Sequence record: SRR20825006_1106
Length of the DNA: 58,084 nt
Direction: 5' to 3' (one strand)
Shown in pieces: positions 11,418-58,084 of the stretch (position 1 is its first letter; each line of letters begins with the position of its first letter). Under the pieces are notes generated by a model. The model was not told the origin of the DNA, ran no database searches, and saw only the letters and a program-made list of their open reading frames with translations. The position numbers were made by a program, and so were the translations under genes.

Positions 11418-11526
11418 TTAAGGAAAAGTTTACTCTGAGTAAAATCCTAATTGCGATGGTTTTTACATTTAAAGTTATTTTACAAATTCTTACAATTCGT
11501 GTTCTTTATTTTTCAATTTTTTACAA
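11418..11526. promoter_or_regulatory. Divergent promoter region with palindrome and TTACAA repeat array (candidate operator)
   Basis: TTTACTC-T-GAGTAAA palindrome at 11429-11443; TTACA(A) at 11463, 11480, 11490, 11521 and TTTCAA at 11511. Confidence 0.4.
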
Positions 11527-11593
11527 AAGCATTTTTCGATTTAATCATCCATATTGTCCCTTCGATAAAACACTAGAGAATATATTTTTAACC

Positions 11594-12373
11594 ATGAGTA
11601 CCACTTACACAAGCTATTTACAAATAAACCCGCTTTTGGAACTACAAAAGCTTCAATCTTCTCCAAAAGAACACGATGAAATGCTTTTCATCATAATACA
11701 TCAAACATATGAATTATGGTTCAAACAAATTCTTCATGAGTTTACAAAACTTTCGTCGGAACTCAACGATGGAAATACATGGGGTTCTGTAAAAACTTTA
11801 CGTAGAGTTTTAACCATTTTTAAGACTTTAGTTGGTCAAATTGACATTCTTGAAACCATGACTCCCCTAGAGTTTAATAGCTTTCGGAAATTTTTGGGTC
11901 AGTCTAGTGGCTTTCAGTCTTTACAATTCCGAGAAATAGAAATCCTCTGTGGTTTACGTTTTCCTTTAATGAAGGAAGCTCATAAAGAAGTTCCAGCTCA
12001 TCTTTTAGTACTCGAGAAGCGTATGGAGCAACTAACTCTTTGGGAAAGTTTCTGTAACTACCTTTCGCATAAAGGATATGATGCAAAACCCATCCGAGAA
12101 AATGAAAAAGGTCTGTTATTCAACCCTTCAGATAAAATTCAGTCTACTTTGATTGAAGTGATGAACTCAAACCCAGAAGCAGCCATGGTTAGTGAACTTT
12201 TAGTAGATTTTGATGAAGGTCTTCAGGAATGGAGATACCGACACGTTAAGATGGTAGAGCGAACCATTGGAACAAAAAAAGGAACGGGCGGTTCTGATGG
12301 CGTTACATATCTTAAAAAAACATTAGATCGTTCAATCTTTCCAGATTTATGGGCGATTCGATCTGAGTTTTAA
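11594..12373 (+). CDS. kynA: Tryptophan 2,3-dioxygenase
   Basis: Motifs Y.SYLQI..LL.LQ, HDEMLFIIIHQTYELWFKQ, LETMTP.EF..FR, SSGFQS.QFR, WRYRHV.MVERTIG.K.GTGGS.G..YL. Start moved to MSTTYTSY. Confidence 0.95.
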   Translation: MSTTYTSYLQINPLLELQKLQSSPKEHDEMLFIIIHQTYELWFKQILHEFTKLSSELNDGNTWGSVKTLRRVLTIFKTLVGQIDILETMTPLEFNSFRKFLGQSSGFQSLQFREIEILCGLRFPLMKEAHKEVPAHLLVLEKRMEQLTLWESFCNYLSHKGYDAKPIRENEKGLLFNPSDKIQSTLIEVMNSNPEAAMVSELLVDFDEGLQEWRYRHVKMVERTIGTKKGTGGSDGVTYLKKTLDRSIFPDLWAIRSEF

Positions 12374-12513
12374 AACTCTTTATTACTGATTTTTTTACGC
12401 CTCCATGATTTGCTTAATTTATTGTTAACTTTTCTCATTGTTAATTAACACAATCCATTTCAGAGACCGAAGTACTCAAATAGTGCTTACCCACTTCTCA
12501 ATTATATTCTATT

Positions 12514-13698
12514 ATGTTAGATATCGATCAATTAGCCCACTCACTAACTCCTCATTACTCACACTTTAAAGTTTCGGAACGGCTTTTATTTACTGGACAC
12601 TCTCACCAAGCTTGGCCAGATGTTGCTTTAGAAGGACAAAAAGAATACTTCTTGGATTCAGCTGAACTAGTAGATAAGAAATGGGAGAAAGCTGCTGAGA
12701 AAACAGAAATTCTTAGAAACTACTTACGTAACTTTTATGACGACCCTGACGGCTTTTATTGTCGAGAAGAAAACACGCACTTTCTATTTGTGAGTTGGTT
12801 AAGTAGCCTTGACCTTAAACAGAAGCCAAAGGTTATTTCTACTGATGGTGAATTTCATTCCCTATACCGACAATTACACCGGCTTGAAGAAAACGGACTT
12901 GAAGTAGCATGGGTAGAAACCAATCCTGATGAAACTTTTGCAAAGCGCATTATTGCAGAGATGGATGATAGAACTTCTGCAGTAATGCTTTCTAGAGTTT
13001 ATTTTGAATCTAGTTTGATAAACACTCATCTATCAGAAATTGCTAAAGCGGCTCGGGATAAAGGCATCCCCGTTCTTATTGATGACTACCACGGAACTAA
13101 TGTAGCTCCACTATCTATACGCAATGCAGATTTAGAAGACTGCTTTTTCATGATTGGTGGCTATAAATATTTACAATGGGGAGAGGCTAATTGCTTCCTC
13201 CGTTTTCCAAAAAACTGTGACCTTCGGCCTGCAATTACAGGTTGGTTTGCTTCGTTCAGCACACTTGAAAAGCCGAGAACCTCTGCCCTTACCGAATATG
13301 ACAATTCTGATCAAAGATTTGCAAGTGGAACTTATGACCCTTCTTCTCAATATAGAGCCGCTAAGGTAGTAGAATTTTTTAAAGAACAGAATCTAACTCC
13401 CGAAATATTAAGAGAACAGTATCAACAAAAAGTTGGGTTACTAAAAGATCATTTTCAGAATCTCAATATCTCACCTAGCCTAATAAAACTTACCCATACT
13501 CGTGATTTAGAATTTAATGGCGGATTTCTGTCCCTTACCTCGCCTAAAGCACAAGAGATACGAGCTCGTCTTCTCGAGAAAGACATATTTACTGATGCTA
13601 GAGGAAACATCATTAGATTTGGCCCAGCTCCTTATACTACTACAGCCCAAATTGAACAAGTGATGAAAGAACTTAACATTGTAATTGATGCACTTTAA
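12514..13698 (+). CDS. kynU: Kynureninase-like class V PLP enzyme
   Basis: Class V PLP motifs (LIDDYH, GGYKYLQWG, PAITGWFA, DARG..IRFGPAPY); located next to kynA. Confidence 0.75.
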   Translation: MLDIDQLAHSLTPHYSHFKVSERLLFTGHSHQAWPDVALEGQKEYFLDSAELVDKKWEKAAEKTEILRNYLRNFYDDPDGFYCREENTHFLFVSWLSSLDLKQKPKVISTDGEFHSLYRQLHRLEENGLEVAWVETNPDETFAKRIIAEMDDRTSAVMLSRVYFESSLINTHLSEIAKAARDKGIPVLIDDYHGTNVAPLSIRNADLEDCFFMIGGYKYLQWGEANCFLRFPKNCDLRPAITGWFASFSTLEKPRTSALTEYDNSDQRFASGTYDPSSQYRAAKVVEFFKEQNLTPEILREQYQQKVGLLKDHFQNLNISPSLIKLTHTRDLEFNGGFLSLTSPKAQEIRARLLEKDIFTDARGNIIRFGPAPYTTTAQIEQVMKELNIVIDAL

Positions 13699-14800: not shown

Positions 14801-14874
14801 ATTTTTTTTGTAAGGAATTTTATAAAAGCCGCTCTAACATATATATCATACACATCAGAAAAATAAAATATCTA

Positions 14875-14953
14875 TTTGCAATTACATATATTGAACATAT
14901 ATTCTTTGCAATGTTTATGTGACACGTTCTGACACTCTGTATGTGTAACTTTG
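14875..14953 (+). promoter_or_regulatory. recA promoter/operator region
   Basis: TAACTTTG (Bacteroidota-type -7 element TAnnTTTG) at 14946-14953; GAACATATATTC near-palindrome at 14893-14904; TGACAC direct repeat at 14920 and 14930. Confidence 0.45.
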
Positions 14954-53901: not shown

Positions 53902-54810
53902 ATGCAGACGATTCCTACAACTACAACCTTCGAAAAAACTCTCTCCCAAAGTAATTGGGTTGCGGCTCAAACTGCTCACAGTGCTCGGATAGAAGCCTTA
54001 GTAGGTGATTATTTAATCCAACGCTCCCAACATGGTAAACAGCCTGTTATGGATTTCCTGTTCGATTATTACGCTTTTAGGCCTTCAATGCTTAGGCGTT
54101 GGTCTCCTGGGTTTAGAACTGCACTCGAAATAGACACCGAAATAGAGCTTCCAGAATTTAGTGAATTCAAAATTCAGGATAATCTAGCATGGTTAGATGT
54201 GAGTTTATTTCCAAAAAGAAGGTATAGGTCTACAAATTGGATTTTACAGATGTTGAAATCCACACAAGATTCACGTCCAGCTTTTGGTTGCTTTGGTATG
54301 CATGAATGGGCAATGGTTTATAAAGCAGAAAAACCACGACACGATCAAGTCCCTTTGCGAATGGAGCCTGAGGAATTAGCTGAGTTTGTAGAATCTCGCC
54401 CTCTCCTTTGTACACACTTTGATGCATTTAGATTTTTCACTCCCGAAGCTGTTCCTATGAATAAATTCCAGTTAACGCGGGATAAATTCGAAGAAAAGGA
54501 ACAACCTGGTTGTATTCACTCTAATATGGATTTATACAAATGGGCATTCAAACTATATCCATGGATTTCTAGTGACTTAATTCTAGAAGCTTTTGAACTA
54601 GCACTTGAAGCTCGAACTATTGATATGAAAGCTAGTCCATATGATCTGCTTGATTATGGTTTAACTCCCATAAAAATTGAGACCGAAGCTGGACGTTTTG
54701 AATACAAAGAGACTCAAGAAGCTATTTTCGAAAGAGGAAAACCTATCCGCGAGAAATTGATTATCGAGTATGAACGATTTTTGGAATGCTTGGAAGAATC
54801 GTCCATTTAG
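53902..54810 (+). CDS. Conserved hypothetical protein with three Cys/His motifs (family I recall being loosely labelled 3-methyladenine DNA glycosylase)
   Basis: PV.DFLF.YY, FGCFGMHEWAMVY, CTHFDAFRFF, QPGCIHSNMDLYKW, DM.ASPYDL. Confidence 0.65.
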   Translation: MQTIPTTTTFEKTLSQSNWVAAQTAHSARIEALVGDYLIQRSQHGKQPVMDFLFDYYAFRPSMLRRWSPGFRTALEIDTEIELPEFSEFKIQDNLAWLDVSLFPKRRYRSTNWILQMLKSTQDSRPAFGCFGMHEWAMVYKAEKPRHDQVPLRMEPEELAEFVESRPLLCTHFDAFRFFTPEAVPMNKFQLTRDKFEEKEQPGCIHSNMDLYKWAFKLYPWISSDLILEAFELALEARTIDMKASPYDLLDYGLTPIKIETEAGRFEYKETQEAIFERGKPIREKLIIEYERFLECLEESSI

Positions 54811-56006: not shown

Positions 56007-56252
56007 ATGAGCGATACAGAAGAATTAGATTACCAATCTTTCGAAGAAGATTTAAAATTTTTGATAACTACGTTAAAAGACAGTTTTGAGTCTACCGATG
56101 TGGAATATTATGTAGACGACCACAACGAGATTCTCTATGTTAAGTTAGAAGGTTTAGACGAATATCCTGAGCATGAAATTGAGGAAATTGCTACTCCGAT
56201 ATTTGAAGAATTAGACATGGATTTTGAAGAAATCATCCTCTTATCACTCTAA
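56007..56252 (+). CDS. Small, very acidic hypothetical protein (81 aa)
   Basis: ATG preceded by an A-rich tract; 27 Asp/Glu, 3 Lys and no Arg by manual count; fills the gap between anmK and thrC. Confidence 0.75.
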   Translation: MSDTEELDYQSFEEDLKFLITTLKDSFESTDVEYYVDDHNEILYVKLEGLDEYPEHEIEEIATPIFEELDMDFEEIILLSL

Positions 56253-56342: not shown

Positions 56343-58049
56343 ATGAAGAGTTCTAATTCTGGATACGTTATGCGTTGTATTATGTGCAACCATGAAAATG
56401 ACGAGCGCAAAACAAGTACGTACTGTACGCAATGTGGCGGTGTGTTAACTATTGAGTACAATGAGGTTCGGCAAGAAATACAGTACCCACTTAAGAATAT
56501 AATTCCTGATCCTCTCAAAAATCATTACACCGCTCTAAAGAAGTTAGAACGCCTTTCTACCATTTATGGCGCTGAGCTTTATGCCAAATTAGAGCTCGAG
56601 AATCCAACAGGATGCTTCAAAGATCGTGGAAGTTATATTGAAGTTTTGAAAGCTCTCGAGTTGGGCGCTGATGCTATTTGTTTGGCTTCAACAGGAAATA
56701 TGGCAGCGTCGGTAGCAGCTTATGCTTGTTATTTCAAACTCCCATGTTTTGTGTTCGTACCCGAAAAAACTCCTGATGTTAAACTCGCTCAAAGCACCAT
56801 TTATGACGCTACTATCATAAAAGTAAAAGGCGACTTCAGAACGTGTGAGGTTCTTTGTCGCGAATTTGCTAAGTCTGGAAATTACTATTTAGCTGGCGAT
56901 TACGTATTTCGCCAGGAAGGACAAAAATCATTCTCTTACGAGCTGTTAGAGCAGGGAGAAATTGATTACGATTACATCTTTGTACCCGTAGGTGCTGGAA
57001 CAAACTTCGCAGCAATTTATAAAGGTTTTGTTGAAATGAAGGCTGCGGGTTTGATTGATAGAATACCAAGTTTTGTGGCTGTTCAGCCAGAACAAAGTTC
57101 TCCCGTTGTTGAAGGAATTTTCAAAAAGGAAAAAATCATCAAGGAACAGGTGCATACTATGGCTGATGCCGTTGCGGTAGGAGATCCTTTCGATTTTTAT
57201 AAAGTTCTTGAAGGTATTGATAAGACAAACGGACTTGCATTCACTGCTACTGAAAACGAACTGCTCGAATCGATGAAAGAAATGACCATCGAAGAAGGCA
57301 TTTTTACAGAACCGGCATGCGCCATTCCCTTAGCAACTTTCAAAAATAATTTAGAAACCTTTAAAGGAAAAAAGTGTTTGTTTGTGCTTACTGGAACAGG
57401 GTTGAAAAGCTCACAAATCGTATCTAAGTATTCACTTTCATCTCCTGTACTATCTCCAAACATGGAAACCATTCAACAGTATATAGATTCGGGATTCCCG
57501 CAATTACAGAAACAAAGTTGGGGTCAGTCGCGGGAAATGATGATTGGTAATGTAAATATGGACGACGACCACGCTCGTTTATACGATGGTTACGTAAGTG
57601 GCATCAACAAAAAAGGGAAGGTTTTAAAAGAGGAAGAAATAAAAGCACTAAAATCTCTCGTGTATAACGAAGAAAAAGTGCTTCATTATCCGGTTGAAGT
57701 TTTAGATTACAAGCTCACAATGCGTATGCATGGCTTAGTAAGTGCGGCAGTGAAGCTTCGCATTGATGGAATTGAGGACGAAGTGCTCTCGTTAGATCAA
57801 GGTGTTGGGCCAATGGATGCTATCTTAACGGCAATTAAAGCCGAAACAGATTCATTCTTGCCTTTAGAAGTTAAGAACCACGAAATTGAAATTCTAAGTC
57901 CTGATACCGACTCCTTAGTTATTGTAACTCTCACTCTAGAAAAGCAGGGACATACATTCCAATCTAAAGGTGCCTCTCCTGATACTATTGAAGCTCTTAT
58001 TCAGGCGTTCGTAAAAGGCTTAGCTATTGCCAATAAAGCACTGGTTTAA
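56343..58049 (+). CDS. thrC: Threonine synthase-like PLP enzyme with N-terminal Zn ribbon and C-terminal LeuA/CimA-type allosteric domain
   Basis: CxxC...CxxC; NPTGCFKDRG (PLP Lys), ASTGN, R.EGQK, EG.F.EPA, LTG.GLK; about 200 extra C-terminal residues containing G.GP.DA and G.S.D.I.A...A. Confidence 0.75.
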   Translation: MKSSNSGYVMRCIMCNHENDERKTSTYCTQCGGVLTIEYNEVRQEIQYPLKNIIPDPLKNHYTALKKLERLSTIYGAELYAKLELENPTGCFKDRGSYIEVLKALELGADAICLASTGNMAASVAAYACYFKLPCFVFVPEKTPDVKLAQSTIYDATIIKVKGDFRTCEVLCREFAKSGNYYLAGDYVFRQEGQKSFSYELLEQGEIDYDYIFVPVGAGTNFAAIYKGFVEMKAAGLIDRIPSFVAVQPEQSSPVVEGIFKKEKIIKEQVHTMADAVAVGDPFDFYKVLEGIDKTNGLAFTATENELLESMKEMTIEEGIFTEPACAIPLATFKNNLETFKGKKCLFVLTGTGLKSSQIVSKYSLSSPVLSPNMETIQQYIDSGFPQLQKQSWGQSREMMIGNVNMDDDHARLYDGYVSGINKKGKVLKEEEIKALKSLVYNEEKVLHYPVEVLDYKLTMRMHGLVSAAVKLRIDGIEDEVLSLDQGVGPMDAILTAIKAETDSFLPLEVKNHEIEILSPDTDSLVIVTLTLEKQGHTFQSKGASPDTIEALIQAFVKGLAIANKALV

Positions 58050-58051
58050 AC

Positions 58052-58084
58052 AAAAAAACTCAGCTTTCTATCGATAGAAAGCTG
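58052..58084. terminator. Probable (bidirectional) terminator after thrC, cut by the window edge
   Basis: Perfect 24-bp palindrome CAGCTTTCTATC/GATAGAAAGCTG at 58061-58084, preceded by an A run. Confidence 0.65.

Follow-up and report, generated by a model that had tools for sequence, protein, structure and literature searches.

A ThrC-like enzyme fused to a LeuA/CimA-type regulatory domain: a conserved architecture with a remodeled substrate site

Introduction

Enzymes of the threonine synthase (ThrC) family are not confined to making threonine. A 2025 paper reports that a divergent ThrC of Microcystis aeruginosa forms alpha-ketobutyrate from threonine in vitro, and states that the ThrC proteins of Thermus thermophilus and Bacillus subtilis deaminate threonine at high concentration (PMC12172450). 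A 2026 paper shows that the PF08502 domain of citramalate synthase (CimA), when isolated, senses isoleucine specifically and assembles into dimers and tetramers (PMC13381585). Here we describe a gene that joins these two kinds of protein. It is the last gene, at 56343-58049 (+), of a stretch of 58,084 nucleotides from sequence record SRR20825006_1106 (the window), and it encodes a ThrC-like enzyme dependent on pyridoxal 5'-phosphate (PLP), followed by a regulatory domain of the type found in 2-isopropylmalate synthase (LeuA) and CimA. We consider it probable that the protein belongs to a ThrC-derived clade of PLP enzymes, is controlled by an effector and is no canonical threonine synthase.

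Both halves of the architecture, the ThrC family and the LeuA/CimA sensor, are of known kinds, and their combination is absent from the literature searched. We found no paper on a protein with the Pfam domains PALP and LeuA_dimer together in a search of papers that did not extend to their supplements, and LeuA goes unmentioned in a review from 2022 on the allosteric regulation of PLP enzymes.

The fusion and its LeuA/CimA-type domain

A sequence-only reading of the window had proposed that the PLP fold ends near residue 360, at LTGTGLK, that the open reading frame (ORF) runs on for about 200 residues, and that this extension consists of a LeuA/CimA regulatory domain preceded by a helical stretch resembling the LeuA linker. 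All of this has held up. LTGTGLK occupies residues 348-355 and the PALP match residues 62-351. The LeuA_dimer domain expected at the C-terminus is found by profile search at residues 431-560 (PF08502, 55 bits against a gathering threshold of 24.9, E 9.9e-15); in the nearest genome, G001, which encodes a 100% identical protein, its copy scores 58.8 bits. Three NCBIfam models of 2-isopropylmalate synthase match the stretch from residue 401, 414 or 418 to residue 563, which corresponds to model positions 344-359 to 499. Since the LeuA models begin to align at residues 401-418, part of the LeuA linker appears to have come with the domain. The domain follows a PALP domain and not the HMGL-like (DRE-TIM) catalytic domain.

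Structure prediction agrees. Residues 363-568, modeled with AlphaFold on an alignment of 18 orthologues (predicted local distance difference test score, pLDDT, 80.5), form four helices and then two beta-beta-beta-alpha units. The ten best Foldseek matches in the PDB are exclusively to LeuA of Mycobacterium tuberculosis (3FIG, 1SR9, 3HPZ, 3HPS) and to the regulatory domain of Leptospira interrogans citramalate synthase (3F6H, 3F6G), all at E between 7e-9 and 5e-8, and the match after these falls to E 9e-4. Superposition of 3F6H and 3F6G on the model gives template-modeling (TM) scores of 0.75-0.81 and a root-mean-square deviation of 2.4-2.7 Å. The alignments to M. tuberculosis LeuA span 134-186 columns and in most chains exceed the regulatory domain alone. 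At the level of sequence a profile was required: phmmer of the C-terminus alone against PDB sequences returned nothing relevant, and for the profile of the 18 orthologues the best PDB sequence was 3F6G (E 0.0027). The model of the full-length protein has a pLDDT of 78 and a predicted TM score of 0.60.

A GVGPxDA loop is found in 15 of 15 diverse fusions, with G487, V488, G489 and D492 invariant and A493 nearly so. In the profile alignment the GVGPMDA loop of the window protein pairs with the GdGgyDA loop of 3F6G. This GxGPxDA loop presumably serves in effector binding, as in the structures of LeuA and citramalate synthase. The 15 aligned fusions also share a KGK motif in the linker, whose G and K positions are invariant and which is the consensus among the 18 orthologues. 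The ratio of nonsynonymous to synonymous substitution rates (dN/dS, or omega) in the regulatory domain is 0.014-0.045 where dS is unsaturated, synonymous sites being saturated in most pairs. One such comparison, of loci L096 and L098, pairs two genomes that both lack ilvC, and the value there is 0.037. The domain is therefore under strong purifying selection, even between two genomes without ilvC.

The fusion is a real and conserved gene, and the possibility of an assembly artefact, on which the initial reading had also hung, is ruled out. In a collection of 5.8 billion proteins, 119 of the best 120 relatives listed have both Pfam domains (68-100% identity); their named sources are Balneolaceae, Balneola and Gracilimonas. 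More distant full-length fusions, of 600-633 amino acids (aa) and 30-40% identity, were recovered by a search without a word index; their clusters include records from NC10, Parcubacteria/Jacksonbacteria and Patescibacteria (the Candidate Phyla Radiation, CPR), all named 'threonine synthase'. In the ESM Atlas, a cluster of 509 members, from Balneolota, has PALP in 100% and LeuA_dimer in 99%, and a second one, of 240 members, is mostly from Methylomirabilota. One fusion locus (L016) came from a contig motif scan dominated by the general ThrC motif.

In a tree of the PLP domain, 20 of 20 fused rows fall in one sub-clade (95% support in the Shimodaira-Hasegawa-like approximate likelihood-ratio test, SH-aLRT; 34 rows) together with 14 unfused rows. 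A single fusion followed by several losses is compatible with this tree, on which well-supported branches force at least four changes. One loss is seen within Balneolaceae: the orthologue of G268 (L112:6980-8155 (-), 391 aa) ends after the PLP fold and has no LeuA_dimer domain. It stands in the same anmK/small-ORF neighborhood as the fusions and is nested, in a family clade with 99% support, within the fused clade, which argues that the sensor domain was lost there.

The substrate site

By fold and sequence the catalytic domain is nearest to threonine synthases. The closest solved proteins by sequence are 6CGQ (E 5e-45), then 2ZSJ, 2D1F and 1UIM. The best Foldseek matches of the full-length model are again threonine synthases (E about 1e-25; 6CGQ 2e-26), followed by threonine deaminases and serine racemases. 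Lys93, which we presume from the ThrC family motif to form the Schiff base with PLP, does not vary among 20 aligned sequences, one of which is the canonical ThrC of G001. As a member of the family, the protein is marginal: it scores 167.7 bits with TIGR00260 (thrC), 0.6 bit above the cut-off of 167.1, where the operonic ThrC of G001 scores 302, and it falls far under every cut-off of five other 'threonine synthase' PRK models.

Two motifs differ from those of ordinary ThrC. In a HMMER alignment to B. subtilis ThrC (6CGQ), ASTGNTSAA stands opposite ASTGNMAAS of the fusion, and LVNSVNPYRLEGQK stands opposite LAGD-YVFRQEGQK, the fusion having a deletion of one residue. Residues G185-R190 thereby fall opposite N-S-V-N-P-Y-R, and the canonical NS.NP.R.EGQK is replaced by AGDYVFRQEGQK, with only the Arg retained. 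The fusion has Asp and Met at the positions of Ser and Thr in ordinary ThrC. The Thr, Asn and Ser so replaced are presumably those that hold the phosphate of O-phosphohomoserine in the T. thermophilus ThrC structures. No variation occurs among the 15 fusions at N119, M120, G185, D186, Y187 or R190.

The same motifs were scored in 79 ThrC loci from reference genomes, of which 76 gave a frame with the lysine motif. Among these ordinary frames STGNT[SA] is present in 72, NS.N..R.EGQK in 68 and both together in 68, and the GNM/GDY type occurs in only three, all archaeal. Around the fusion the proportions are different: among the best 150 representatives, 50 carry the GNM/GDY pair (17 of them also the GVGPxDA loop) and only six are canonical. 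STGNM[AG] and GDY..R are found in all 15 fusions and in their nearest unfused relatives, and the tree of the PLP domain splits this GNM/GDY clade from canonical ThrC with 100% SH-aLRT support. The NCBIfam model that its members match best is PRK08197.

Two other assignments were tried. Cysteate synthase was rejected: TIGR03844 gives 46.1 bits against a cut-off of 324.9, and ten clade members have no match at E 1e-30. The threonine deaminase (IlvA) families TIGR02079 and TIGR01124 give 85.8 bits (cut-off 440) and 63.4 bits (cut-off 411), respectively.

Two genomes have a second paralogue of the ThrC-like kind, at L194:6140-7345 (-) in G056 and L195:5742-6953 (+) in G120; it is 401-403 aa long and scores 518-590 bits with PRK08197. 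In G056 it adjoins a LysR-type regulator and a YfcC-like transporter. Neither genome has thrB, and these are 'threonine synthases' of doubtful function.

Gene context and distribution

Gene context was annotated at 12 metagenome loci that encode relatives of the NC10 protein P0128. Three of them (L187, L191 and L192), whose fusions share about 50% identity with P0128, have the fusion in first place and ilvE, ilvB, ilvN, ilvD or ilvC downstream in the same direction; at the remaining nine the neighbors are unrelated. The link to ilv genes is thus real in some lineages and absent in others, Balneolaceae among them.

Upstream of the fusion in G001 lie a divergent anmK and a small acidic ORF; on its other side the fusion faces a convergent group of dapD, dapA, dapB and a lysine-type aspartokinase gene (lysC), a hairpin separating the two convergent units. 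Many genomes likewise have the fusion beside, and convergent with, an aspartate-family operon (dapD-dapA-dapB-lysC in G001, thrC-thrB-thrA in G320). Elsewhere G001 has a canonical thrA-thrB-thrC operon, whose ThrC (432 aa) has a Thr_synth_N domain, an IlvA (644 bits) beside ilvD-ilvB-ilvN-ilvC, and a leuA-leuC-leuD-leuB operon. Its LeuA (L014:10617-11780 (-)), the sole HMGL-like protein there, is of the short 387-aa form without a regulatory domain, so that the fusion carries the only PF08502 domain of G001.

We scored 61 Balneolaceae genomes for six markers; as these genomes are kin, the counts are descriptive only. An orthologue of the fusion is present in 42, full-length in 39, cut by a contig end with the domain kept in two, and cut before the domain in one. 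It occurs in 23 of the 37 genomes with class-II ThrC versus 19 of the 24 without. In five genomes that are 96-100% complete (G048, G100, G313, G331 and G076) the fusion is the only ThrC-like match near the cut-off. These five have no recognizable homoserine kinase of the GHMP type, the only type searched for; their best thrB score is 42 bits, with the cut-off at 168. A search for homoserine dehydrogenase and MetX-family acyltransferase, which covered G048, G100, G331, G076 and G001, found both in all five genomes; the MetX-family matches of the first four have E 1e-115 to 1e-125.

G076 has a further peculiarity. In a leu/ilv cluster collinear with that of G001, ilvA is cleanly missing (L197, between 11499-11975 and 12054-13199), and tblastn found no remnant. 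This genome has no CimA-like gene, thrB or canonical thrC and keeps the fusion. Another source of 2-oxobutanoate and isoleucine auxotrophy are equally compatible with the gap.

Balneolaceae have a short 2-isopropylmalate synthase (frames of 388-452 aa) that lacks the Leu-binding regulatory domain, as seen in G001 and in 36 genomes of the family. In 22 genomes a longer gene with HMGL and LeuA_dimer domains (CimA-like) adjoins it, next to ilvC. It occurred to us that the regulatory domain of the fusion might be a detached piece of the organism's own LeuA, acting in trans. The idea had initial appeal, as G001 LeuA covers positions 4-387 and the fusion positions 359-499 of the same model. It was rejected on three counts: all 36 of 36 LeuA-type HMGL matches lie in short frames, whether the fusion is present or not; G305, G136, G336 and G341 have the short LeuA with neither the fusion nor a CimA-like gene; and 18 genomes keep the fusion without any LeuA-type match.

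What the enzyme may do

Starting from the observed architecture, its conservation, the remodeled motifs and the phyletic pattern, we put forward, with a little less than even confidence, the view that the fusion is an effector-regulated lyase, which would form 2-oxobutanoate by elimination, from threonine or a homoserine ester, under modulation by a branched-chain amino acid. The distinct ThrC-like clade marked by STGNM[AG] and GDY..R.EG.K would no longer have the substrate site found in ordinary threonine synthase, and formation of threonine from O-phosphohomoserine is improbable for the fusion enzyme. Most likely it would instead release 2-oxobutanoate and ammonia in an elimination reaction, with L-threonine or possibly O-acyl-homoserine as the substrate. 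Binding of a branched-chain amino acid at the C-terminal domain would tune the activity, whether as inhibition or as activation. Isoleucine is the best guess for the effector: among solved domains, the nearest is that of citramalate synthase, which binds Ile. Since IlvA and thrABC are present in the window organism, and the gene survives in auxotrophs, the role there would be accessory, as a second, differently regulated route to 2-oxobutanoate, or else as a catabolic outlet for threonine. In support we count the relatives that head ilv genes at three of the 12 loci, the precedent of threonine deamination by ThrC proteins, the isoleucine sensor of CimA, and the remodeled motifs. We also count the fold and the invariant loop of the regulatory domain with its purifying selection, the canonical thrA-thrB-thrC and IlvA that G001 has besides the fusion, the five genomes that keep the fusion where thrB stays under its cut-off, and the missing ilvA of G076.

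Several observations pull the other way. Arg190, Asn221 and TGxGLK of ThrC are retained, the thrC cut-off is just reached, and the reaction is one that we infer. No RidA gene adjoins the fusion, and an Rfam scan at gathering thresholds found no amino-acid leader or riboswitch upstream. There is no ilv operon at the fusion in the window or at 19 Balneolaceae loci, where the only constant neighbors are AnmK and the small acidic ORF. The fusion is found in 10 of the 13 genomes with IlvA above the cut-off, in 13 of the 22 with a long CimA-like gene next to ilvC, and in 24 of the 37 with ilvC versus 18 of the 24 without. In Balneolaceae, then, it is neither tied to the synthesis of branched-chain amino acids nor complementary to IlvA or CimA. 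As its distribution ignores the isoleucine genes, supplying 2-oxobutanoate for isoleucine cannot be its general role in the family, nor can replacing IlvA be its sole role. The case of G076 is weak, since valine and leucine synthesis requires ilvBNCD and leuABCD in any event, and the thrB cut-off is missed by three of 14 control genomes too.

The persistence of the fusion in genomes without ilvC, and neighbors unrelated to amino-acid synthesis both in Balneolaceae and in NC10-like contigs, would also suit a different chemistry altogether (beta-replacement, racemization or another lyase reaction), in which the domain senses a branched-chain or other amino acid as a nutrient signal. Several ThrC-like clades are uncharacterized, such as the STGNAA and STGNMG types among the best 150 representatives, and the paralogue beside a LysR regulator in G056 is of the PRK08197 type. 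Against this, cysteate synthase is ruled out by its TIGR03844 score, the only informative gene context found is ilv, and the catalytic core is nearest to ThrC and next to threonine deaminases and serine racemases. We regard a different chemistry as unlikely, although it deserves to be kept in mind.

The sequence-only reading had taken the protein for a branched-chain-regulated threonine synthase. What is supported of it is a ThrC-family PLP domain with a LeuA/CimA-type domain whose loop is kept in all 15 fusions; what is not supported is threonine synthesis from O-phosphohomoserine, given the borderline TIGR00260 score, the replacement of both motifs and the retention of the gene where no homoserine kinase is recognizable. 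That the fusion is nonetheless a genuine second ThrC, acting on O-phosphohomoserine and placed under feedback by a branched-chain amino acid through its LeuA-type domain, strikes us as quite improbable. Such a role is favored by the TIGR00260 score of 167.7 versus 167.1 bits, by the threonine synthases that are its closest solved relatives in sequence and fold, by the retained PLP lysine motif, Arg190, Asn221 and TGxGLK, and by the convergent aspartate-family operons that adjoin the gene in many genomes (G001 and G320 among them). All database entries that name the protein also call it a 'threonine synthase' or a 'PLP-dependent enzyme', but the sequence and the carrier genomes say otherwise: Asp and Met stand in place of Ser and Thr in the two ThrC-specific motifs, a full thrABC operon is present in the same genome, the gene is kept in the five genomes without a recognizable homoserine kinase, and relatives head ilv operons, not thr operons.

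The genomes without thrB raise the question of other homoserine esters. There is a small chance that the GDY clade as a whole is a phosphate-independent offshoot that forms threonine or 2-oxobutanoate from MetX-made O-acyl-homoserine, with Asp186 as the catalytic base and the LeuA-type sensor in control. Were this true, a new route would lead from the methionine branch into threonine or isoleucine synthesis, and the joint occurrence of the fusion, homoserine dehydrogenase and MetX in G048, G100, G331 and G076 would be explained. A narrower version has it that threonine itself is formed from MetX-made O-acetyl- or O-succinyl-homoserine, independently of phosphate, with Asp186 taking over the catalytic part of the departing phosphate, and that this keeps thrB/thrC-less Balneolaceae prototrophic for threonine. 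The four genomes just named, which lack thrB and canonical thrC, fit such a role, as does the higher share of fusions among genomes without class-II ThrC (19 of 24 versus 23 of 37), and a pocket with Met, Gly-Asp-Tyr and the kept Arg might suit an ester over a phosphate. However, the reaction has no precedent, the phyletic contrast is small and drawn from related, non-independent genomes, 23 of which carry thrC and the fusion together, the ilv-operon context of relatives points to 2-oxobutanoate and not threonine, and threonine auxotrophy is plausible where ilvC and leuA have been lost as well. We give the narrower version very little weight.

Lastly, that the C-terminal domain is ligand-free and merely holds a dimer or tetramer together is hardly probable: Pfam does name the domain allosteric (dimerisation), its identity to the solved regulatory domains is 17-24%, and its loss in G268 (391 aa) indicates that the catalytic part can stand alone, but GVGPxDA and S545-P546-D547 are invariant or nearly so in 15 fusions of 30-35% overall identity, which exceeds what packing needs, and omega is 0.014-0.045.

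In sum, we prefer the view of a regulated, 2-oxobutanoate-forming lyase. If 2-oxobutanoate is indeed what it makes, a step of threonine or isoleucine metabolism is mis-assigned in metabolic reconstructions of NC10, CPR and Balneolaceae. Bench tests should be possible, as the fusion occurs in genera with named strains and species (Gracilimonas, Balneola and Rhodohalobacter), and natural variants provide ready controls: G268, without the sensor domain, and G076, without ilvA.

Features of the locus

The positions of the gene, its domains and its motifs are collected in Table 1. The N-terminal element is the least constant of them. Its Pfam match, Zn_Ribbon_TF at residues 10-45, is weak (E 0.024, under the cut-off), and the full-length AlphaFold model has a small beta hairpin in this region. 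The CxxC...CxxC pattern (56376-56438 in the window, residues 12-31) is kept in 11 of 18 Balneolaceae orthologues; as the cysteines are lost in the other seven, the ribbon appears dispensable in part of the family. The hairpin at the end of the window is terminator-like, with a stem of 10 pairs and a T run on the minus strand.

Table 1. Positions in the window of the fusion gene, its parts and the adjoining hairpin.
Feature	Position	Strand	Description and basis
Whole gene	56343..58049	+	568 aa, ATG start; ThrC-like PLP enzyme + LeuA/CimA-type regulatory domain; ORF translation, Pfam
N-terminal four-cysteine Zn-ribbon-like element	56370..56477	+	Residues 10-45; C12, C15, C28, C31
Fold-type-II PLP domain	56526..57395	+	Residues 62-351; Pfam PALP E 2.3e-61
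Presumed PLP Schiff-base Lys93 in NPTGCFKDRG	56619..56621	+	Alignment
Substrate loop S116-T-G-N-M-A121	56688..56705	+	Counterpart of STGNT[SA] in ordinary ThrC
G185-D186-Y187-V-F-R190	56895..56912	+	Counterpart of NS.NP.R in ordinary ThrC; HMMER alignment to 6CGQ
Helical linker with KGK motif	57426..57632	+	Residues 362-430; helices in both AlphaFold models
LeuA_dimer (PF08502) regulatory domain	57633..58022	+	Residues 431-560; Pfam E 9.9e-15
G487-V-G-P-M-D-A493, GxGPxDA loop of LeuA/CimA regulatory domains	57801..57821	+	Alignment of fusions; profile versus 3F6G
Palindromic hairpin	58061..58084		12 bases past the stop codon, separating the fusion gene from the convergent dapD, which in G001 comes directly after the hairpin

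The small acidic ORF upstream of the fusion (window 56007-56252 (+)) encodes 81 aa, is very acidic and matches no Pfam family; it ends 90 bases before the fusion on the same strand. We considered it as a partner of the fusion because it adjoins in 19 of 19 loci, and rejected it as such: it is present in 58 of the 61 genomes, including those without the fusion, so that the association is one of synteny only. Farther upstream, an ORF of 302 aa (53902-54810 (+)) is matched by no Pfam or NCBIfam model; in other genomes the same relative position beside anmK is occupied by ORFs of 300-308 aa, likewise without a family (e.g., L097:9158-10060). At 14848-14914 (-) the window has a gathering-level Rfam match to the eukaryotic small nucleolar RNA SNORD77 (41.9 bits, E 2e-4), which is almost certainly due to chance.

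Comparison with known systems

The nearest described proteins are the class-I threonine synthases (EC 4.2.3.1) of B. subtilis (6CGQ/6NMX), T. thermophilus (1UIM/1V7C), Aquifex aeolicus (2ZSJ) and M. tuberculosis (2D1F), which have the same fold-type-II fold and are 28-34% identical to the fusion. They share with it the NPTG.FKDRG lysine motif, the R.EGQK arginine, the G.G.N loop for the PLP phosphate and TG.GLK, and its N-terminal Zn ribbon is also found in many archaeal-type ThrC-like proteins. The fusion departs from them in STGNMA, in AGDY..R with its one-residue deletion, and in 200 extra C-terminal residues with the LeuA-type domain. It also differs in its genomic standing, being a paralogue beside a canonical thrABC operon and occurring without homoserine kinase.

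A functional parallel may be the M. aeruginosa ThrC, a ThrC-family protein phylogenetically apart from canonical ThrC that shows sigmoidal kinetics in the formation of alpha-ketobutyrate from threonine in vitro (PMC12172450). The Microcystis enzyme still uses O-phosphohomoserine and is without a LeuA-type domain. Allostery as such has one established example among threonine synthases, the plant enzyme activated by S-adenosylmethionine (PMC9081730; Arabidopsis 1E5X/2C2B), which is also a structural relative of the fusion. There the effector is S-adenosylmethionine, the LeuA-type domain is lacking and ordinary ThrC chemistry is kept.

In overall design the fusion recalls biosynthetic threonine deaminase (IlvA, EC 4.3.1.19; Escherichia coli 1TDJ), in which a fold-type-II PLP domain is likewise followed by a C-terminal domain that binds an amino acid, as is predicted for the fusion; IlvA is also a structural neighbor (Foldseek E 1e-18 to 1e-20). 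The two belong to different clades, however (THD1 85.8 bits versus a cut-off of 440), and the regulatory domain of IlvA is ACT-like, not LeuA_dimer.

For the LeuA_dimer domain the models are the regulatory domains of LeuA (3FIG, Leu-bound) and CimA (3F6G/3F6H, Ile-bound), with which the fusion shares the two-fold beta-beta-beta-alpha arrangement, the GxGPxDA loop and part of the helical linker, although it is only 17-24% identical and carries the domain on a PLP enzyme instead of an HMGL-like TIM barrel. A PLP enzyme with a rebuilt substrate site would have taken over a feedback sensor from enzymes of a quite different family, and sensors as portable as this one illustrate how evolution puts allosteric control together.

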